Positions 1,039 through 45,327 of a stretch of DNA of 45,327 nucleotides are shown one piece after another. The stretch lies in the IMG/VR virus record IMGVR_UViG_2737471992_000006; one strand, written 5' to 3'. A program made the position numbers and the translations under genes. This stretch comes from a virus. Its lineage: Duplodnaviria; Heunggongvirae; Uroviricota; Caudoviricetes. The number at the start of each line of letters is the position of its first letter. The stretch's first letter is position 1. The notes under the pieces are model-generated. The model saw nothing but the letters and a program-made list of their open reading frames with translations. It was not told the origin of the DNA and did no database searches.

Positions 1039-1126
1039 TTTTGAACATTTCAGGCTATTTTTCTCGCGTTAGGTTCCCGCACAGGTTCCCACGTTTTATG
1101 GGAACCCGAAATAACGAGGTCGTGTA

Positions 1127-2224
1127 ATGGCGTACTATAACATAGAGAAACGACTAAAATCCGATGGCACACCACGCTATCGCTGTAATGTGATTATCAA
1201 AGAAAAAGGGGTTATCACTTACAGGGAAAGCAAAACATTCCCTAAACATGCTCATGCCAAAACATGGGGCACACAGAAAGTGATGGAATTAGATCTACAT
1301 GGCATTCCATCATCAAATGCTGTTGACGGGCTTACAGTCCGTGACTTACTACGCAAATATTTAAATGACCCAAATGCCGGAGGTAAAGCAGGCCGTACTA
1401 AAAGATATGTGCTGGAACTACTTATGGATAGTGACATTTCTGCGATCAGACTATCTGAATTAACAGAAAATGACGTAATAGAACATTGCAGGTTGAGAAA
1501 CAACGCCGGTGCAGGTCCAGCTACTGTTAGCCACGATGTTAGTTATCTTGGCAGTGTTCTGGATGCAGCCAAACCTGTATACGGAATTAATTACACATCA
1601 AACCCAGCAAAAGCCGCTCGTCCATATCTACTTAAACTTGGTTTAATTGGTAAATCAAATCGTCGTAATCGTAGACCAGCATCTGATGAACTAGACATGC
1701 TCATTGAAGGCCTTCAACAACGATCTACTCATAAATGCTCAAAAATTCCGTTCGTTGATATCCTCAAATTTTCTGTGTGGTCCTGTATGCGAATCGGAGA
1801 AGTATGCCGGTTACGATGGGAAGATCTCGACCAGGAACAAAAATCTATACTAGTAAGAGACAGGAAAGATCCACGTAAAAAGGAAGGTAACCATATGAAA
1901 GTGGCCTTGCTTGGGGAAGCCTGGGATATCGTCCAACGACAACCCAAAAAATCTGAATTCATTTTTCCATACAACAGCACTTCTGTTACCGCAGGATTTC
2001 AGAGGGTAAGAAGCAAATTAGGTATTAAAGATCTGCGATACCATGATTTGCGTAGAGAAGGGGCAAGTCGCTTATTTGAGGCTGGTTTTAGTATTGAGGA
2101 AGTCGCCCAGGTTACAGGGCATCGTTCATTAAACGTGCTATGGCAGGTATATACCGAACTGTATCCAAAATCTTTACATAATCGTTTTGAAGAACTCCAA
2201 AGGAGCAGAAATAAGACCTCTTGA
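1127..2224 (+). CDS. int: dusA-associated tyrosine integrase (site-specific recombinase)
   Basis: 365 aa; C-terminal catalytic region with R..H..R..Y pattern (LRYHDLRREGASR ... GHRSLNVLWQVYTELY); GAGG Shine-Dalgarno before the ATG; transcribed divergently from the dusA 5' end. Confidence 0.85.
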   Translation: MAYYNIEKRLKSDGTPRYRCNVIIKEKGVITYRESKTFPKHAHAKTWGTQKVMELDLHGIPSSNAVDGLTVRDLLRKYLNDPNAGGKAGRTKRYVLELLMDSDISAIRLSELTENDVIEHCRLRNNAGAGPATVSHDVSYLGSVLDAAKPVYGINYTSNPAKAARPYLLKLGLIGKSNRRNRRPASDELDMLIEGLQQRSTHKCSKIPFVDILKFSVWSCMRIGEVCRLRWEDLDQEQKSILVRDRKDPRKKEGNHMKVALLGEAWDIVQRQPKKSEFIFPYNSTSVTAGFQRVRSKLGIKDLRYHDLRREGASRLFEAGFSIEEVAQVTGHRSLNVLWQVYTELYPKSLHNRFEELQRSRNKTS

Positions 2225-2249
2225 CACTGTTTATTCATACAGTTAAAAA
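2221..2249 (+). promoter_or_regulatory. sigma70-like promoter for dinI (TTGACA -35, 17-nt spacer, TAAAAA -10)
   Basis: Perfect TTGACA at 2221..2226; A/T-rich -10 candidate at 2244..2249; overlaps the LexA boxes. Confidence 0.35.
2225..2244. promoter_or_regulatory. LexA (SOS) box 1, CTGT-N8-ACAG
   Basis: cactgtttattcatacagtt: CTGT at 2227..2230, 8-nt spacer, ACAG at 2239..2242, inside the promoter spacer. Confidence 0.5.
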
Positions 2250-2252
2250 TAA

Positions 2253-2272
2253 TACTGTATACAAACACAGTA
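2253..2272. promoter_or_regulatory. LexA (SOS) box 2, near-consensus
   Basis: tactgtatacaaacacagta matches the TACTGT-N8-ACAGTA consensus; lies 14 nt upstream of the dinI ATG. Confidence 0.65.
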
Positions 2273-2285
2273 TAGAGGGATTTTT

Positions 2286-2534
2286 ATGCGTATTGAGATC
2301 TGCATAGCCAAAGAGAAAATGACTAAAATGCCAAACGGTGCTGTGGATGCGTTAAAGGAAGAATTAACTCGACGCATCAGTAAGCGTTATGACGATGTAG
2401 AGGTGATCGTAAAAGCCACCAGCAACGATGGCCTTTCTGTTACGCGCACCGCCGATAAAGATTCAGCTAAAACTTTTGTTCAGGAAACTCTGAAAGATAC
2501 CTGGGAGTCTGCTGACGAGTGGTTTGTTCATTAA
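2286..2534 (+). CDS. dinI: DinI-family DNA-damage-inducible protein (RecA modulator)
   Basis: 82 aa, acidic C-terminus typical of DinI; GAGGG Shine-Dalgarno; two LexA boxes upstream. Confidence 0.85.
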
Positions 2535-2600
2535 TTAATACGTAAAATCGATAACGGCTGGAAATCATTCAATACTCGCACTATCGGAAGTTCACCAGCC

Positions 2601-2640
2601 AGCCGCAGTATTCTGCCATGACAAGTTGCTGCGGCTTTTT
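2601..2640 (+). terminator. candidate intrinsic terminator after dinI
   Basis: Inverted repeat agccgcag / ctgcggct followed by TTTTT; the loop is long (20 nt), so the call is weak. Confidence 0.3.
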
Positions 2641-2644
2641 ATGT

Positions 2645-2932
2645 TTAACGGATAAACAGCCAGACCAGCAGACACGCCATCACCGGCACAGCAAAATCCA
2701 TCAGGCTTGCTACATCCCACACGCGCGGATCAAAACCGCCCCACCACGGCATATTCATACGCTTGCCATGTCCGAACATTTCAATCCAGCGATATTCTGC
2801 CTGGGTGTGTTCACGCGCAATGAAGAACGTACAACCGGCTATCGCCCCGTAAGCCCAGTTTCCGGTAAAAAGACCAGCCAGTACCTGCACCGCTATGGCA
2901 CAAAGCGCATGAAGTATCGACGTGATATCCAT
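2645..2932 (-). CDS. small hydrophobic membrane protein at the tail-fibre operon end (unknown function)
   Basis: 95 aa with hydrophobic segments at both ends; same strand and tight spacing after the stf-coupled ORF. Confidence 0.5.
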   Translation of the reverse strand: MDITSILHALCAIAVQVLAGLFTGNWAYGAIAGCTFFIAREHTQAEYRWIEMFGHGKRMNMPWWGGFDPRVWDVASLMDFAVPVMACLLVWLFIR

Positions 2933-2941
2933 CTGCTATCC

Positions 2942-3220
2942 TTAAAACCACTCCCTGAGCGGGCGCTCTGGTGTAACCACCCACTCACGGAACACGGAAT
3001 CATCAAATCCATCGTCAAGAAGACGGATATTAACAAAGTACCCTTCGTTTCGCGTGTATTCTGGTTCTCCGTCATCAGGAACATCTGTCTCCCTGAACGT
3101 AAAACCAATCTCATCAACCAGAACGGCATTCTGCAGCTCTTCGTCCTCTTCCCAGTTAAGTTTCCTGAGAAATGCCCTGAAATCTGCTTTATCACTGAAA
3201 CGCAACGTGAAATCTCTCAC
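2942..3220 (-). CDS. hypothetical acidic protein translationally coupled to stf (possible fibre chaperone or accessory protein)
   Basis: 92 aa; GTG start at 3220 overlaps the stf TGA (GTGA); it sits where lambda has tfa but does not resemble lambda Tfa. Confidence 0.45.
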   Translation of the reverse strand: MRDFTLRFSDKADFRAFLRKLNWEEDEELQNAVLVDEIGFTFRETDVPDDGEPEYTRNEGYFVNIRLLDDGFDDSVFREWVVTPERPLREWF

Positions 3221-5283
3221 TCCACAACCTCCCCAAGCTGCGCATCTGTTAGCTCTTTATGCCAGAGACGAAAATTCCTCACATGCCCAAATAAATGGCG
3301 TAATCCTGCTGTAGTTTGTCCACCAATGCGAATGGTTGCTGTACTCCGGATATATTCCCATTTGGTTTTAGTTTCGCTGCTTAACTTACCGTTACTGACT
3401 ACACATGTGGACCGTTCGGACTTTACCCGCATACCAATAAGCATTTTTTCCAGCCCGGCATTTTCATTTATTCGTCGGTCTGAACCACCTATATCGCAAT
3501 ACGGAAAACCGTCGTACCCACCTGATGAACCAAACCCCATTACGATCCCCGCTCCGGTTTGATGACCGCCGGTATCAAAAACACGCGGCGCTACATTTGG
3601 CGTTTTATACCAGTTCTTATGTACCTCACAAAGAACCGTAAAAGGAAGATTATAAAGGTTATTCTTGATTGGGACTGTCACCATATCGCTTGCCCGCGTT
3701 GCCGGTGTCGTCCCCGTAACAATAAAAGATGATGTGCCTGTACCAGCCTCAATCTGTGGAGTGGTTACATCGAGATAATCCCCTGATGCAACCATCTGCC
3801 CTGTATCCGGAGAATACTGGACAAAACCACCAACCGTATTTTCTGTTGTATCTGCTTTTAATGTAGCCTCAAAAAATATCCAGCCAGTTGCATCATCCTT
3901 AACAGACCTTGCTGTAACACGGCTTGTCTGACCTGTCTTGCTAATTATGCGGGTGGTAAGGTTCAGGTTTGCTGCTCCTATTGATGTCCTTACCTCCCCA
4001 TCATAATGTTCAAATAAAATACGAACGGCGATATTATCAACTTCACTTTTTACCCGACAGGATATAGTTACATGCTTTTCGTCCCCTGAAGTATCAACCC
4101 CTCCGGTACTCGAATACAGTCCGATAATGGTATGCGCTTTACTTGTACCAACAATCGAATCCTGTACGACAAACCGGCCATAATTAAACCCGAAACTATC
4201 TGTGCCTGTTTCTGTAACGTCCAGTGAAGTTGACTTATTCCACTTCGAAGGGTCTGTACTGTTCTGGAAGAAGTTCGTTCTTTGTCCCTCAATAAGCAGG
4301 CCATCACACTCAAATCGCGGCTCATTAATTTCCGCCGTTTTCAGTTCGCCAGATTTGTTGATATATGTTGCCGTTGATGCGCGACTGAAATTAACCTGTT
4401 TATCACTGGCAACCTGAACCACATTATCACCAATCTTCACTTTTTTATAACCCGGAGAATAGCCCGTAATCATATCCAGCGAATCATTAAAGGGTATCCA
4501 CACATCCGGCAGCGGCTGTAAAACATATCTGTACGGCTCTGCTGTCTGGTTTGCGTATTCTCTGGCAGCATCTTCACTTGCTTTTGCTGCCGTCTGGCTT
4601 GCTGCCGATGCTTTCGCCGAGTTCGCCGCCGCTGTTTCGCTCACCTTTGCGTTGGCTTCACTGTCTTTGGCATTCGTCTCACTGGTTTTCGCTGCCGTCT
4701 GGCTGGATTTTGCGTTTTTTTCGCTGGCCTTTGTGGCTGTCTCGCTATTTTTCGCGCTGGTTTCTGATTTTTTGGCTGCTGTCGCGGAGTTTGCCGATGC
4801 AGTCTGCGAGGCCGCTGCCGCCTGTGCGCTGTTAGCTGCATTCGTTTCTGAGGTTTTCGCCGCATTCTTCGATGAGGCTGCTGCCGTTTCGGATTTCTTT
4901 GCCGCCGCTGCACTCTGTGATGACGCTCCGGCATGACGTGCCACTTCATTCACCATCAGCTCAAAACGGCGCAGTGCCTCCGGACGGGCATCATCCTCCG
5001 TCATGGCACCGAGAAAATCATTCAGCGTACCTGGTCTGGAACCTTCATAGACGGTAATGGTCCCGGCATGTGAAGGTGGAAAACCTTCAACCAGCAGGGT
5101 GACGCTGTACTGACCATGCTCAACATCCATGCTGTAACGCCCGGCTTCATCCGGATTTTCAGAGGCCACCGTGTTCACCAGTACCGTGGTGCTGTTACGC
5201 TTTGCCTTCAGTTGAATAGTGCAGTTCTGTATTGGTTTTCCCGCACCATCTTTCAGCACACCTGAGATTTTTACTGCTGCCAT
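3217..5283 (-). CDS. stf: side tail fibre protein (lambda Stf-like N-terminus, divergent C-terminal receptor-binding region)
   Basis: N-terminal ~120 aa closely resemble lambda Stf (MAAVKISGVLKDG...TITVYEGSRPGTLNDFL); ATG at 5283 preceded by GGAG; central Ala/Ser/Thr/Lys repeats; C-terminus resembles a lectin/LamG-like jelly-roll (my reading). Confidence 0.85.
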   Translation of the reverse strand: MAAVKISGVLKDGAGKPIQNCTIQLKAKRNSTTVLVNTVASENPDEAGRYSMDVEHGQYSVTLLVEGFPPSHAGTITVYEGSRPGTLNDFLGAMTEDDARPEALRRFELMVNEVARHAGASSQSAAAAKKSETAAASSKNAAKTSETNAANSAQAAAASQTASANSATAAKKSETSAKNSETATKASEKNAKSSQTAAKTSETNAKDSEANAKVSETAAANSAKASAASQTAAKASEDAAREYANQTAEPYRYVLQPLPDVWIPFNDSLDMITGYSPGYKKVKIGDNVVQVASDKQVNFSRASTATYINKSGELKTAEINEPRFECDGLLIEGQRTNFFQNSTDPSKWNKSTSLDVTETGTDSFGFNYGRFVVQDSIVGTSKAHTIIGLYSSTGGVDTSGDEKHVTISCRVKSEVDNIAVRILFEHYDGEVRTSIGAANLNLTTRIISKTGQTSRVTARSVKDDATGWIFFEATLKADTTENTVGGFVQYSPDTGQMVASGDYLDVTTPQIEAGTGTSSFIVTGTTPATRASDMVTVPIKNNLYNLPFTVLCEVHKNWYKTPNVAPRVFDTGGHQTGAGIVMGFGSSGGYDGFPYCDIGGSDRRINENAGLEKMLIGMRVKSERSTCVVSNGKLSSETKTKWEYIRSTATIRIGGQTTAGLRHLFGHVRNFRLWHKELTDAQLGEVVE
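4560..4950. repeat. in-frame tandem repeats encoding the KxSExxAxxS shaft of Stf
   Basis: Reiterated gc-rich units produce long spurious ORFs in all other frames here. Confidence 0.6.
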
Positions 5284-27837: not shown

Positions 27838-28890
27838 TTATTTCCCCACCAGCTCGTTTATCTCTTTCACTGTCTGGTTAAACCGCTCTGACTCAAGCTC
27901 AACACCTAAGGCCCGACGCCCCAGCGCCATTGCTGCTTTTATTGTGGAACCGGATCCCATAAAAAAATCAGCAACCAGATCACCAGGTCGACTACTGGCA
28001 TTGATTATTTGCCTGAGCATATCCGCCGGTTTCTCACACGGATGTTTACCCGGGTAGAACTGAACGGGTTTATGCATCCAGACATCGGTATAAGGCACGG
28101 AGACTGATACGGAGAAATAGCGCCGGAGAGATTTAAACTCATCCAGCAATTCAGAATATTTGCGATTCAGTGAATCATAAGATGCCACCAGCTGGTGGTG
28201 TGGTTGTTCCAGTTGTTGTTCCTGAAACTTCTCTGCCGCTATACGGGAAAACAGTGCCTGTAACTTCCGATAGTCAGCCTCATTCGGCAACTGCCACTGA
28301 CTGGCACCAAACCAGTGGGAAACCATATTTTTCTTACCTGTGGCTTCGGCAATTTGTTTTGCCGTTATACCCAGTTCGGCACGAGCATCCCTGAAATACG
28401 ATATCAGCGGTGCCATTATGTGCTGTTTGAGTTCCCTTTCTTTTGCCGCATAGCCGTCACTTTTGCCGCGATATGGCCCCTGGTAATGTTCAGCAAACAG
28501 AACGCGCTCTGTGGCAGGAAAATATGCGCGCAGACTTTCTTTATTACACCCATTCCAACGTCCGGACGGCTTCGCCCAGATGATATGGTTAAGCACGTTG
28601 AAACGTTCACGCATCATGATCTCAATATCAGATGCCAGGCGATGCCCACAGAACAGGTAAAGGCTTCCGGCAGGTTTTAACACCCGCCAGAACTGGGCCA
28701 GACAGTGGTCCAGCCACTTAAGGTAATCTTCGTCCCCTTTCCACTGATTGTCCCAGCCGTTGGGTTTCACCTTGAAGTACGGCGGATCGGTAACAATCAG
28801 GTCAATGGAATCATCAGGCAGGGACTGAATAAAATGCAGGCAATCAGCGTTGATTAAATCAACACTGTTTATTTTTACAGTATTTTTCAT
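27838..28890 (-). CDS. orphan DNA amino-methyltransferase, beta-class (DPPY before FxGxG)
   Basis: 350 aa; motif [10 protein letters not shown] near the N-terminus and AdoMet motif FFMGSGST near the C-terminus; no restriction partner nearby; weak Shine-Dalgarno. Confidence 0.8.
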
Positions 28891-32254: not shown

Positions 32255-32644
32255 TCAGGCGGCTGCACCCGCCGTTTTCTCGTACTTACTGATGGTGATC
32301 TCGACCTTCCCTTTCGGGATAACCGGTCCCCACTCCACCAGCATTCTTTTCACCTGTCTGTCGTCTTCCCACACACCCGCGTGGGTCAACGCGTCAAACA
32401 GCGCCTTGTTATAGTTGTCCAGATCGCGGATCCGGTTATCCGGAGGAAACAACACGATCTCCACTGCAGCAGGTGCCGACGTTGGTTTTGGCAGACGACG
32501 TAACTGCTCAACTATTGCTGCGCACGCCGCGCTCTGAAATTTTCGCCCCGCCGCGCTTATCAGGCTCTTACCAGCAAATGCCCCTTTGTTGGGGTGTCGC
32601 CAGTACGTGTTCACGCTGGGCGGGAAAGGCAGGATCAGCTTCAT
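32255..32644 (-). CDS. rusA: RusA-family Holliday-junction resolvase
   Basis: 129 aa; LPFPPSVNTYWRH ... RDLDNYNKALFDALT pattern. Confidence 0.85.
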   Translation of the reverse strand: MKLILPFPPSVNTYWRHPNKGAFAGKSLISAAGRKFQSAACAAIVEQLRRLPKPTSAPAAVEIVLFPPDNRIRDLDNYNKALFDALTHAGVWEDDRQVKRMLVEWGPVIPKGKVEITISKYEKTAGAAA

Positions 32645-32967
32645 ACTTTCAGGCCTCTCTCATGTAACCAGTGGGCTGCACGCAGCCTGGCGTTTTCCTC
32701 ACCGGCAAGCAGTGAGCGGATAATCCCGACCGCCTCGCTGTCGTCGTCCTTCACCGCGGTATGAAGCGTGATACCCCGGGCCACGCCACGCTTTATCGTG
32801 ATGACGCCTTTTTTCTCCAGTGCGCGAAGATGTTCCACCGCTGCATTCACTGAACGGTATCCCAGCATGGTTGCCACCTCCTGATTGGTTGGCGGGAAGC
32901 CACGTTCTTTCTGGTAAGAAATCAGCATATCCAGCACCTGCTGCTGGCATTGAGTTAACGTCGTCAT
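32641..32967 (-). CDS. LexA N-terminal DNA-binding-domain homologue lacking the S24 peptidase domain
   Basis: 108 aa; strong resemblance to the LexA N-terminal domain (QQ.VLD.I......GFPPT..E.A..LG.RS.NAA.EHL.AL..KGVI.I..G.ARGI.L); no Ser/Lys dyad region. Confidence 0.7.
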   Translation of the reverse strand: MTTLTQCQQQVLDMLISYQKERGFPPTNQEVATMLGYRSVNAAVEHLRALEKKGVITIKRGVARGITLHTAVKDDDSEAVGIIRSLLAGEENARLRAAHWLHERGLKV

Positions 32968-35159: not shown

Positions 35160-35988
35160 GACGATGCCCTCCGCTGATATTCAGGAGACGGTGAATATGA
35201 AAATTAGCCTTATCCGCCAGACGAATACGTTCAGCCTGCAAGTTAAGAAGGGTTTCTACCAAAACCTGATGCGCCTGCGGATCCGAAAGAGTTACCTTGC
35301 GCAGAGCACGTAGTGCAGTTGTTACATAACTGAGTTTATGTAAGTCTTCATCATTCAGACGAGTGAGGGCTGGGACAGTAGCCATGATGGCAGCCTCCTT
35401 GATCGGTGAAATACTTCCATCACCGGAAACGCCAATTTCGCTGGTGGTGAACTGAACGGGGTTGGCGTAACCGGTGATCAAGGAAACCGGCGCATCTTTC
35501 GATGCCCCCGCCCAGCCCACCATAACTTTGATGTGAGCAAATGCGGACGATAAAAAAGACGCTGGCGCGTCATATATCGCCTTGATCAATTCCAGGACGC
35601 CAATCCCGGCACCCGCTTTATAAGGTGCCTGAACAGTGTAACGTCCCGGAATGGCAGAATCAATGTGCTGGTGGTCCTTCACACTCAACAAAATCACGCC
35701 TGAATTTCCACAAAGGACTAAAGCACTCATGCGGGTAGTCTTTGCGAAGATAGATAACGCGCTGTGTTTCTGGCTCCCAACGAATAACATGAACATAAAG
35801 TCCTCTTCTGTCACGAAACCAGCGGTTAAGTTCCTGCACAACTCGCCCCCCACAGTCAGGTAAAGTTCTCTGTGGTTACTTACAGCCAGGTGATTTGGTA
35901 ATCTGCATTCATGCCGTAACAACAGGTGTTCAGCGACGCTGGCCACCAGCTGTTGCGACAAACGGTTATTTGCCGTTAAACTGTTCAT
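35152..35988 (-). CDS. hypothetical 278-aa protein in the early-right operon
   Basis: ATG overlaps the upstream stop (ATGA); no recognisable motif (no Walker A box). Confidence 0.6.
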   Translation of the reverse strand: MNSLTANNRLSQQLVASVAEHLLLRHECRLPNHLAVSNHRELYLTVGGELCRNLTAGFVTEEDFMFMLFVGSQKHSALSIFAKTTRMSALVLCGNSGVILLSVKDHQHIDSAIPGRYTVQAPYKAGAGIGVLELIKAIYDAPASFLSSAFAHIKVMVGWAGASKDAPVSLITGYANPVQFTTSEIGVSGDGSISPIKEAAIMATVPALTRLNDEDLHKLSYVTTALRALRKVTLSDPQAHQVLVETLLNLQAERIRLADKANFHIHRLLNISGGHRHA

Positions 35989-36870: not shown

Positions 36871-37545
36871 ATGAAAACAGTCCATGACATCCGGCGGTCT
36901 AACGCCAGAAAACTGAGAGATGGTGTTGGCGGGAATTCTTCCTTTGCCACCATGATTGATCGCGAGCCAACCCAGACCAGCAGGTTTATGGGAGATGGTG
37001 CTACTAAAAATATCGGTGACAGCATGGCACGGCACATCGAAAAATGTTTCGACCTGCCTGTCGGATGGCTTGATCAAGAACACCAGACAACAAACATCAC
37101 AAAAAAACCTGATGTTTCAATTACTAACAAACAAATAACGTTAGTCCCTGTCATATCATGGGTACAGGCCGGAGCATGGAAAGAAGTTGGCTATTCTGAG
37201 GTTGATTTGAGCACAGCAGAAACTTATCCCTGCCCTGTACCCTGTGGCGAAATGACTTATATCTTGCGGGTGATTGGTGATTCAATGATTGATGAGTACC
37301 GCCCGGGAGACATGATTTTTGTAGATCCTGAAGTCCCTGCCTGCCACGGTGACGACGTTATTGCATTGATGCACGATACGGGCGAAACCACCTTTAAGCG
37401 GTTGATAGAAGATGGAACACAGCGTTACCTCAAAGCATTAAACCCAAACTGGCCTGAACCTTACATTAAGATCAACGGTAATTGCTCTATAATTGGTACA
37501 GTAATTTTCTCAGGAAAACCAAGAAGATACAAAATAAAGGCCTAA
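36871..37545 (+). CDS. CI-type prophage repressor with S24 (LexA-like) autopeptidase domain
   Basis: 224 aa; N-terminal helix-turn-helix ending ...IEKCFDLPVGWLD; C-terminal domain with the Ser nucleophile in VIGDSM and a downstream Lys. Confidence 0.85.
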   Translation: MKTVHDIRRSNARKLRDGVGGNSSFATMIDREPTQTSRFMGDGATKNIGDSMARHIEKCFDLPVGWLDQEHQTTNITKKPDVSITNKQITLVPVISWVQAGAWKEVGYSEVDLSTAETYPCPVPCGEMTYILRVIGDSMIDEYRPGDMIFVDPEVPACHGDDVIALMHDTGETTFKRLIEDGTQRYLKALNPNWPEPYIKINGNCSIIGTVIFSGKPRRYKIKA

Positions 37546-44907: not shown

Positions 44908-45327
44908 TTACTCATCATCAATAGATGATACGCAATATTTATTTTTAAATTTAAGGTTCTTTGGCGTAACTTCATCAGATATATCAAAACCGTCCAGAAT
45001 TCTATTGAATGTAGCTTCTGGCATATCATCATGAACAAAAATCTCACCCGATCGCTGCTTTCTAACCATGTTATCCACTCGCCAAATTATAGCTTCAGCG
45101 TAAACAACATAACTTGGATGCTTGATAAAGCGATGATCACCAGAATTCAAGACGCAAGACGGATCGTGGGGGACACCATCCTTGATACTAGAAATATTAA
45201 CAACTAAAACACAATAACAATCGTTAACGGGGTAATAAACAGGATCATTACAAATCACATGAAGATGATTGCATGGCCCAGTTGGGGCAAGCACAGTTCC
45301 TTTCCTGTATGGCTGATAATCCGTCAT
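44908..45327 (-). CDS. 139-aa hypothetical protein, first gene of the operon (Cys/His/Asp-rich)
   Basis: Complete ORF (ATG is the last three bases of the window, TAA at 44908..44910); AT-rich; no recognised family. Confidence 0.55.
   Translation of the reverse strand: MTDYQPYRKGTVLAPTGPCNHLHVICNDPVYYPVNDCYCVLVVNISSIKDGVPHDPSCVLNSGDHRFIKHPSYVVYAEAIIWRVDNMVRKQRSGEIFVHDDMPEATFNRILDGFDISDEVTPKNLKFKNKYCVSSIDDE

Follow-up and report, generated by a model that had tools for sequence, protein, structure and literature searches.

A putative LexA-controlled cassette encoding a DinI-family protein at the integrase end of a lambdoid prophage of E. coli

The window analysed here is the whole 45,327 nt stretch of the IMG/VR virus record IMGVR_UViG_2737471992_000006, read 5' to 3' on one strand; it holds a lambdoid prophage of E. 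coli integrated at dusA. Between the integrase gene (int) and the tail-fibre end lies a short cassette (approximately 2218–2642), which from its layout is most likely a self-contained moron in which a single gene, preceded by its promoter and operators, is followed by a hairpin terminator (Table 1). The dinI-like gene is transcribed against the flanking late genes and is enclosed by its own promoter and its own terminator (a hairpin followed by TTTTTAT). The homology to related copies breaks on the left at the −35 hexamer, and on the right side the cassette abuts a separate conserved element of the b region. No repeat of at least 13 nt of the dusA/int junction, as expected for attR, was found elsewhere in the window, and the other prophage end therefore lies past position 45327 or the core is shorter. 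The annotation coordinates of NZ_AP040205.1 are offset by 286 bp from the right-hand part of the window.

Table 1. Features of the dinI-like cassette and the prophage repressor (positions in the window).
Feature	Position	Strand	Description and basis
−35 hexamer TTGACA	2221-2226	+	Promoter scan; same hexamer in subfamily promoters of several genera
LexA box 1	2225-2244	.	CACTGTTTATTCATACAGTT; occupies the whole −35/−10 spacer; CTGT-N8-ACAG at 2227-2242
−10 hexamer AAAAAT	2245-2250	+	18-nt spacer; promoter scan
LexA box 2	2253-2272	.	TACTGTATACAAACACAGTA; starts 3 nt past −10; overlaps the inferred start site (~2257); CTGT-N8-ACAG at 2255-2270
Shine-Dalgarno AGAGGGA	2274-2280	+	5 nt ahead of ATG; read from sequence
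dinI-like gene	2286-2534	+	82-aa DinI-family protein, predicted to bind RecA filaments; Pfam, PHROG and PDB matches
3' hairpin 1	2556-2600	+	Stem GGCTGG/CCAGCC; fold and covariation counts
3' hairpin 2	2602-2642	+	Stem GCCGCAG/CTGCGGC (2602-2635), then TTTTTAT (2636-2642); fold z = −2.8
Prophage repressor, YmfK-like, 224 aa	36871-37545	+	S24 self-cleaving domain (Peptidase_S24, E = 1.5e-26); outside the cassette

A preliminary description of the locus had named the gene product a DinI homologue, and profile searches agreed: Pfam PF06183 was matched with E = 1.2e-19 (70.8 bits, cut-off 24.2) over profile positions 1–63 of 63, DinI in the PDB (1GHH/7YWA) with E = 8e-13 and PHROG 189 ('RecA filament binding protein DinI') with E = 4e-31. 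The identity to K-12 DinI is 46% over the full length. The cut-off of the NCBIfam DinI equivalog NF007893 was missed (72.5 against 111 bits), and the protein is assigned to a paralogous 'DinI-like' subfamily with the motif AKEK..KMP. Across this subfamily and K-12 DinI 24 of the 82 columns are invariant, and the protein is under clear purifying selection. E. coli DinI contacts RecA through a pocket formed by L13, L21, W71, W77 and F78 and through an acidic patch of E24, E69 and D76 (PMC9926225). The pocket residues align with M15, L23, W73, W79 and F80 of the 82-aa protein and the acidic residues with E26, D71 and E78, such that five of the eight contact positions are identical and three are conservative replacements; RecA binding is accordingly predicted for the prophage protein.

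The promoter that had been proposed ahead of the gene was recovered by a promoter scan, with 10 of 12 consensus matches in its two hexamers; an alternative −10 (TAAAAA, 2244–2249) would have a 17-nt spacer. The integrase gene ends within the −35 hexamer, at a TGA stop codon (2222–2224). A matching promoter is annotated at the dinI cassette of phage mEp460, and homologous promoters carry an A/T-rich hexamer, xAxxxT, at the −10 place. The two CTGT-N8-ACAG sites of the preliminary description were found where it had placed them. Each is the centre of a 20-nt palindrome of the LexA type [TACTGT(AT)4ACAGTA] with CTG-N10-CAG cores, and the pair covers the promoter and the transcription start. Box 1 agrees with the LexA consensus TACTGTATATATATACAGTA at 15 of 20 positions and box 2 at 17 of 20, which is what the 'near-perfect consensus' claimed for one of them amounts to. 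The distance of 14 nt to the gene was likewise approximate, there being 13 nt from the end of the box 2 20-mer to the ATG and 15 nt from its ACAG. The operator of K-12 dinI is no better than the boxes described here (15/20), and K-12 dinI is a proven SOS gene (HI 4.8, 49-fold induced; PMC11228462).

The window contains four CTGT-N8-ACAG sites against 0.59 expected, a count reached by one of 100 shuffles. Sites with at least 15 of 20 consensus matches and CTG/CAG cores occurred at a mean of 0.01 per sequence in 300 first-order Markov random 45-kb sequences, and a pair of such sites within 40 nt occurred in none of the 300. Operators were graded by consensus matches and by a home-made matrix, for which 41 LexA boxes ahead of other genes of the DinI family were used. 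Boxes 1 and 2 scored 26.6 and 25.1 bits, respectively; outside these and a third box no position of the window scored above 6.3 bits. The third box (28863–28882; 24.0 bits) is conserved and lies at the start of the first late-region gene, a methylase. The fourth CTGT-N8-ACAG, at 35870, was rejected as a chance match (matrix score −2.2). The sequence evidence thus supports boxes 1 and 2 as real LexA-type operators on a sigma-70 promoter, and LexA would be expected to bind them and the promoter to be SOS-induced. A literature search found no experiment on this promoter or on its 82-aa protein.

Among 20 upstream variants (61 viral contigs) the CTGT/ACAG cores were constant and the spacer of box 1 was variable. 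The order TTGACA, box 1, −10, box 2 is kept in the DinI subfamily in Escherichia, Shigella, Trabulsiella, Mixta and Erwinia with differing spacers, the half-sites being retained while spacer and flanks diverge. In species-representative genomes two boxes were present at 14 of 21 loci of the 82-aa subfamily, whereas among 59 loci from other DinI subfamilies a single one had two. Most of the 14 have the arrangement TTGACACTGT...CAG / −10 / CTG...CAG with a centre-to-centre distance of 24–29 bp; two depart from it, one (L086) having ATTGACA and the other (L100) having its boxes elsewhere without TTGACACTGT. One box has been lost at the remaining seven of the 21 loci, and two operators are therefore not essential. 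In nearly all DinI-family genes a LexA box lies 13–22 nt ahead of the ATG. That the cassette is an inert remnant, its boxes surviving through the youth of the sequence, would fit with the many copies in defective prophages and with one frameshifted copy (L096). This explanation is disfavoured as extremely improbable, since the layout is kept between genera at 56–72% protein identity with diverged spacers and flanks, and since almost every copy of the cassette retains an intact ORF.

Two hairpins follow the gene, the second of which, with its TTTTTAT tract, in this copy probably serves the cassette as its intrinsic terminator. The loop of hairpin 1 contains a conserved 21-mer (CATTCAATACTCGCACTATCG, 2566–2586) which was found in at least 120 viral contigs; no paper printing the loop sequence was found in a literature search, and the 3' region had no Rfam match even at E ≤ 1. 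Compensatory changes were counted in 5 of the 7 stem pairs of hairpin 2 and in 10 of 14 pairs over both hairpins, and double-change cells numbered 61 against 20.6 in shuffles (0 of 500 shuffles reached the observed value); in these counts the structure was named by hand and its pairs then counted, and as it was drawn from the same sequences the contrast with slid controls is inflated. RNAalifold found no structure on the MAFFT alignment because gaps misplace the stems. In the reference lambda genome (NC_001416) the element is absent from 21.5–25.5 kb; several lambda-named records carry it.

The conservation of this element raises the question of whether a structured 3' RNA (2556–2642) is the main payload, the promoter then making an SOS-induced regulatory RNA. 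The compensatory changes speak for it, as do the conservation of the loop as far as Pantoea, the excess, on the dinI-sense strand, of G-U pairs (46) over A-C mismatches (26) and the precedent of the chromosomal dinI of Klebsiella, which yields the sRNA DinR (PMC10907235). In HK97 and E24377A, among others, however, the element has neither a dinI gene nor a LexA promoter upstream, many of its copies are without the U-tract expected for an Hfq-type sRNA, and the protein itself is under clear purifying selection. A DinR-like action on the ftsZ leader was considered and rejected, the duplex being no better than those of shuffles (fraction at or below the observed value 0.90) in a crude test in which the K-12 control gave 0.07. 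We regard this reading as very improbable.

The closest chromosomal counterpart is dinI of K-12 (b1061), which encodes a protein of the same fold family (81 against 82 aa) with the RecA contacts kept and which likewise is a lone gene with a LexA box just ahead of its ribosome-binding site and a hairpin terminator at its end. The prophage gene differs in its divergence (46% identity, below the equivalog cut-off), in being phage-borne and mobile, in its 3' region, in its consensus TTGACA −35 and in having a second operator, placed within the promoter spacer. The Gifsy-1, -2 and -3 prophages of Salmonella also carry a DinI-family gene under a LexA box; these homologues are under LexA control and respond to nalidixic acid with a 5- to 23-fold induction (PMC3121763; PMC8072944). 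There dinI is the first gene of a LexA-controlled dinI-antirepressor-irsA operon; prophage induction is set off by the antirepressor, which the second gene encodes, without cleavage of the repressors (Lemire et al., 2011; PMC3121763). The Gifsy operon follows the replication genes and has one reported box, whereas the present cassette lies at the tail-fibre/int end and has two, and the non-cleavable Gifsy repressor contrasts with the cleavable S24 type found here. A Gifsy-like antirepressor ORF was looked for after the dinI-like gene and is absent: from the stop codon to the U-tract there are only about 100–106 nt, the single open frame lacks any ATG, GTG or TTG, and in related copies indels that are not multiples of three break any frame.

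Tum of coliphage 186 and the split tum of PSP3 and Fels-2 are LexA-controlled phage genes with a DinI-like portion. The window protein aligns to positions 71–149 of 151 of PHROG 189, which fits Tum-sized family members; the antirepressor activity of Tum resides in its non-DinI half, and the 82-aa protein has no such half. Tandem LexA boxes are present at colicin promoters, lexA and recN. They are generally tied to tight repression and to late or strong-damage induction, as for GIL01, the P3 promoter of which also has two LexA operators (PMC6182141). In GIL01, LexA together with gp7 is the lysogeny repressor, whereas here LexA would control an accessory gene only. Unlike at other tandem-box promoters, the operator spacing is not fixed across the present subfamily.

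For DinI of E. coli both a stabilising effect on the RecA filament and, in excess, an inhibition of its co-protease activity have been described, and the sign of its effect can therefore not be read from sequence. The prophage repressor is of the S24 self-cleaving type and has the motifs VQAG/A (the Ala-Gly site), GDSM and FKRL (the Lys motif); it is for this reason plausible that the DinI-like protein tunes RecA-dependent repressor cleavage, and the repressor would compete with DinI for the RecA filament. In the proposed mechanism, host LexA dimers on both operators, over the spacer and the start site, would keep the strong TTGACA promoter shut in the lysogen. After DNA damage, activated RecA (RecA*) would bring about LexA self-cleavage, the promoter would fire and the DinI paralogue would be made. 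The paralogue would stabilise the RecA filament and at the same time block the filament site needed by the slower RecA* substrates, namely UmuD and the S24 repressor of the prophage. The net result would be a damage-timed brake, with which repressor cleavage and SOS mutagenesis would have a higher damage threshold or be delayed. The best explanation of the cassette, and in our judgement a probable one with considerable room for doubt, is a moron under LexA repression that encodes a protein binding to activated RecA and acting as such a brake. Within it a net braking effect is most likely, and the direction and size of any effect on prophage induction are speculative.

Elsewhere in the window (32641–32967, minus strand) there is a 108-aa phage protein which consists of a LexA DNA-binding domain alone and has no S24 domain. 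It matches Pfam LexA_DNA_bind with E = 2.9e-19 and the N-terminal domain of E. coli LexA (1LEA) with E = 7e-16, and its recognition helix (SPNAAEEHLKAL) is identical to that of 1LEA (SVNAAVEHLRAL) at 9 of 12 positions. The boxes might also, or mainly, be read by this uncleavable protein, in which case their re-occupancy after the loss of LexA would turn DinI synthesis into a pulse. Many phages, among them mEp460, cdtI, Stx2c phages and PhiR40_1, carry the dinI cassette together with this gene, and GIL01 gp6, a truncated LexA homologue acting at a promoter with tandem LexA boxes, provides a precedent (PMC6182141). The co-occurrence is, however, mostly among close relatives, with the LexA-domain gene in 61 of the 212 phage records that match the dinI region, and other genera keep the boxes in subfamily promoters without evidence of a LexA-domain gene. 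Full-length LexA dimerises through its C-terminal domain, in place of which the 108-aa protein has only a 43-residue tail. The reading is considered improbable. A wider scheme is held to be just as doubtful: in this prophage SOS sub-circuit LexA would act on the dinI boxes (2225–2272) and on the box at 28863–28882, and the LexA-domain protein of the early operon would then re-occupy these boxes and perhaps host SOS boxes, such that a pulse of DinI would transiently shield the repressor on RecA filaments and host SOS would be shut down after lytic commitment.

The position of the gene, which had been called unusual for an early-type function, proved to be the usual one, the tail-fibre/att end of lambdoid prophages being where the cassette is normally found. 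In mEp460 the same order of int, dinI and tail fibre is present (stf-dinI-int), the order dusA-int-dinI is kept in Rosenbergiella, the Pantoea and Mixta copies adjoin tail-fibre assembly genes and an O157 copy lies at a prophage end beside ssrA. The integrase gene adjoins the tail end only because the att site of a dusA-type integrase is on the opposite side of int compared with lambda. Of 5426 complete E. coli genomes, at least 1512 (≥28%) carry the cassette (at least 80% of the query covered), often in several copies; its contexts vary, with and without int.

This distribution bears on a further reading, in which the moron acts by lysogenic conversion, to the benefit of the host and with no meaningful effect on prophage induction: an extra, tightly repressed copy of DinI would stabilise RecA filaments for repair and limit UmuD processing, and with it SOS mutagenesis, in damaged lysogens. 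Consistent with it are the location in the moron zone beside lom and the tail fibres, the copies at the ends of defective prophages, where neither int nor an immunity region is close by, and the presence of up to eight cassette places per E. coli genome. The known biochemistry of DinI also concerns filament stability and UmuD (PMC9926225), and deletion of the Gifsy dinI genes left induction unchanged (PMC3121763); the latter is no fair test of a brake, because the Gifsy prophages use antirepressors and not cleavable repressors. Against a purely host-side role, a LexA-controlled dinI is already present in the host, such that the gain from a further copy is not obvious, and the conserved linkage to int in distant genera, together with the presence of the cassette in plaque-forming phages, suggests a role on the side of the phage. 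We hold this reading to be unlikely, although it carries real weight; it is compatible with the damage-timed brake and the two are not exclusive.

The DinI cassette is common in coliphages and is of a type already known; it does not represent a new mechanism, and the present copy is a well supported example of an SOS-controlled phage accessory gene of this type. If the brake model is true, the cassette would set the DNA-damage induction threshold of many E. coli prophages. Toxin release after antibiotics would then be affected, as the cassette is carried by Stx1, Stx2 and cdt phages, and there would be cross-talk among co-resident prophages competing for the same RecA filaments.

Because the stop codon of the integrase gene lies inside the -35 hexamer of the next promoter, the boundary of integrase module and dinI cassette is exact to the base. 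The preliminary description had placed two CTGT-N8-ACAG sites at a TTGACA promoter ahead of a DinI homologue, and this was borne out: both palindromes were found at a promoter matching the consensus at 10 of 12 positions. CTGT-N8-ACAG occurs four times in the window against an expectation of 0.59, and a random 45 kb holds on average 0.01 sites that have the CTG/CAG cores and agree with TACTGTATATATATACAGTA at 15 or more of 20 positions; no pair of such sites within 40 nt was obtained in random 45-kb sequences. Scored with a LexA matrix built in-house from 41 boxes upstream of other DinI-family genes, boxes 1 and 2 reached 26.6 and 25.1 bits, followed by a third site at 28863, while the rest of the window did not exceed 6.3 bits; the fourth CTGT-N8-ACAG match, at 35870, scored -2.2 bits and was rejected as a chance match. 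The tandem boxes therefore exceed chance. The proven operator of K-12 dinI (ACCTGTATAAATAACCAGTA; 15/20 to the consensus) is no better than the window boxes, and K-12 dinI has an HI of 4.8 and is induced 49-fold (PMC11228462).

Features discussed in the text (window positions)
Feature	Position	Strand	Remarks
dusA	1-1038	minus	left end of window
Tyrosine integrase gene	1127-2224	plus	after dusA, before the dinI cassette
-35 TTGACA	2221-2226	plus	promoter scan; contains integrase stop codon TGA (2222-2224)
LexA box 1 (20-mer)	2225-2244		fills the -35/-10 spacer
CTGT-N8-ACAG palindrome, box 1	2227-2242		
-10 AAAAAT	2245-2250	plus	18-nt spacer from -35
LexA box 2 (20-mer)	2253-2272		starts 3 nt after -10; covers inferred start site
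CTGT-N8-ACAG palindrome, box 2	2255-2270		
Shine-Dalgarno AGAGGGA	2274-2280	plus	
dinI-like ORF	2286-2534	plus	82 codons; Pfam DinI, E = 1.2e-19
Two-hairpin element	2556-2642	plus	conserved; after dinI stop codon
DNA methylase gene	27838-28890	minus	350 aa
Third LexA box, TACTGTAAAAATAAACAGTG	28863-28882	minus	24.0 bits (LexA matrix)
LexA DNA-binding-domain-only protein	32641-32967	minus	108 aa; Pfam LexA_DNA_bind, E = 3e-19; 1LEA, E = 7e-16
C4 antisense RNA beside isrK	35440-35628	minus	Rfam, 82 and 64 bits
Prophage repressor	36871-37545		Peptidase_S24 domain; motifs VQAG/A, GDSM, FKRL

Conservation of the layout was followed in 61 viral contigs with enough upstream sequence, in all of which the encoded protein is 98-100% identical. 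These contain 20 upstream variants with changes in the N8 spacer of box 1 and in the flanks; the half-sites are unchanged. There are two exceptions: one CTGG, a half-site that is tolerated in LexA boxes, and a 1-nt insertion that precedes box 2 directly in one variant. When one genome per species was surveyed, a LexA box was found 13-22 nt before the ATG in nearly every DinI-family gene. Two boxes are present in 14 of the 21 loci of the 82-aa subfamily (motif AKEK..KMP, 56-99% identity to the window protein) versus only one of 59 loci of the other DinI subfamilies. Most two-box loci, from Escherichia, Shigella, Trabulsiella, Mixta and Erwinia, share the arrangement TTGACACTGT-N8-(A/C)CAG, an A/T-rich -10 and then CTG-N10-CAG; the two exceptions are locus L086, with ATTGACA, and a second Pantoea copy (L100), in which the boxes are placed differently. 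In the closer Pantoea copy (L090) box 1 is retained and box 2 is degenerate. The centre-to-centre spacing of the boxes ranges from 24 to 29 bp across two-box loci, so that their placement seems to follow the promoter elements and not a fixed helical phase.

The product of the downstream ORF was likewise confirmed as a DinI homologue: besides the Pfam domain it matches PHROG 189 ('RecA filament binding protein DinI') and the solved DinI structures 1GHH and 7YWA (E = 8e-13), with 46% identity to K-12 DinI. It scores below the NCBIfam DinI equivalog cut-off and is therefore regarded as a DinI paralogue, not an orthologue. By cryo-EM, RecA F203 enters a DinI pocket formed by L13, L21, W71, W77 and F78, and DinI E24, E69 and D76 face RecA K232, R243 and K245 (PMC9926225). 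The aligned positions in the 82-aa protein are M15, L23, W73, W79, F80, E26, D71 and E78, five of which are identical to E. coli DinI and three conservative; from these retained contacts we infer, on good grounds, that the protein binds in the RecA filament groove. Separately, some E. coli DinI-like proteins from outside the window (P0001-P0003) owe their length of 108-112 aa to a segment of about 30 residues that is duplicated in tandem within the protein; P0001 has it twice.

To the right of the cassette, all on the minus strand, lie two small ORFs of unknown function, the side tail fibre gene, lom, J and the remaining lambdoid late region. Positions 1040-3300 are 100% identical to E. coli NR3736 (NZ_AP040205.1); further right the window is not collinear with this genome, being 286 bp shorter somewhere before ~26 kb, and for the window's right-hand part (~25-45 kb) coordinates taken from the NZ_AP040205.1 annotation exceed the true ones by 286 bp. 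The location of dinI between int and the tail-fibre end had been called unusual, which is refuted by the same order (side tail fibre, dinI, int) in the sequenced phage mEp460, for which the depositors annotated the dinI promoter, by the order in Rosenbergiella and by tail-fibre neighbours elsewhere. Two Rosenbergiella species (Erwiniaceae; L104 and L105) keep dusA (75% protein identity), int (69%) and the dinI-like gene (56-58%), and at the latter a single LexA box overlaps both -35 and spacer; this order points to an old linkage of the dusA-type integrase with the DinI-like gene. The Pantoea and Mixta copies face genes for tail-fibre assembly, and an O157 strain carries the gene next to ssrA, at the end of a prophage. 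The site is thus the normal one, a zone of morons (self-contained accessory cassettes) between tail fibres and att/int, and int adjoins the cassette only because the dusA-type integrase has its attachment site on the other side.

Judged by sequence comparison, the cassette is mobile, with a left edge of homology at the -35 in different contexts: matches in phages such as cdtI, 2H10 and the Stx2c phages start at 2218, three bases before the -35, and in loci with unrelated upstream DNA homology starts exactly at TTGACA. The cassette alone was at least 80% covered in at least 1512 of 5426 complete E. coli genomes, at up to eight places per genome; the region has matches in 212 phage records, Stx1, Stx2 and cdt phages included, and thousands of genomes already carry an annotation of the protein.

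The two-hairpin element is separate from dinI and widely conserved. At least 120 viral contigs contain its loop 21-mer (CATTCAATACTCGCACTATCG); this DinI type lies upstream in only 43 of them, and others have a different dinI-like gene or none. The element itself is present in 195 phage records, HK97, HK633 and some lambda derivatives among them. Compensatory changes were found in 10 of 14 stem pairs, with 61 double-change cells against 20.6 in shuffles (reached in 0 of 500), and G-U pairs favour the dinI-sense strand by 46 to 26. A U-tract is present in the window copy and absent in many others. The element has no Rfam match and its loop sequence was printed in no paper found; it is a candidate for a structured element, as RNA or as DNA, in lambdoid b regions.

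The third LexA box covers codons 3-9 of the DNA methylase gene, which has the Q antiterminator gene on one side and the lysis genes on the other. It is kept (CTGT and CAG) in Citrobacter, Klebsiella, Hafnia and Morganella phages, phiP27 and Stx2a phages, while the spacer and the encoded residues vary; this conservation suggests that LexA acts at the start of the late region too. The gene for the 108-aa protein belongs to the early region, with an adenine methylase gene on one side and rusA on the other, and 61 phage records contain it. The protein has a recognition helix identical to that of E. coli LexA at 9 of 12 positions and no S24 protease domain. By analogy with GIL01 gp6, a characterised precedent for a truncated LexA homologue (PMC6182141), it could compete for LexA boxes as a protein that cannot be cleaved. 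Phage mEp460 (L294) shares the same three boxes and has a fourth (TACTGTTTTTACATACAGTA, 25.9 bits, L294 31970-31989) inside its own prophage repressor gene; the window, with a different immunity region, has no counterpart of this box. The C4/isrK pair, inside or upstream of an Ash-family ORF, is a P1/P7-type antirepressor control module in a lambdoid immunity region with an S24 repressor.

The Salmonella Gifsy prophages have a dinI homologue under LexA control as the first gene of an operon; the second gene is an antirepressor that triggers induction, and the Gifsy repressors are not cleaved (PMC3121763). An operon of this type was rejected for the window, in which the U-tract follows the stop codon after only 106 nt and the sole open frame lacks ATG, GTG and TTG; related copies differ 3' of dinI by indels that break any frame. 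In contrast to the Gifsy genes, the window gene stands alone, at another location and in a phage with a cleavable-type repressor; compared with chromosomal dinI it has a second operator inside the spacer and a consensus -35. In the only related experiment, non-polar deletion of the Gifsy-1 and Gifsy-3 homologues had no effect on induction (PMC3121763), which in Gifsy phages is independent of repressor cleavage. A phage-borne DinI-family gene under SOS control is a type already known and ordinary in kind.

In the lysogen, LexA on two operators most likely keeps the strong promoter off, and its cleavage upon DNA damage would free it. The DinI paralogue would then be made and bind RecA filaments; DinI binds in a ratio of one molecule to two RecA protomers, and a single DinI spans five protomers. 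Filaments would be stabilised, and UmuD and the prophage's own repressor, as slow substrates, would face competition. The observation of the preliminary description is confirmed and its interpretation partly supported; that the prophage tunes RecA-dependent repressor cleavage is plausible. The papers found contain no experimental work on the E. coli cassette; they name it in lists of phage genes or offer speculation, in one case on a limiting effect on the induction of Stx phages (PMC8456039). On the simplest prediction, prophage induction would be delayed or its threshold raised.
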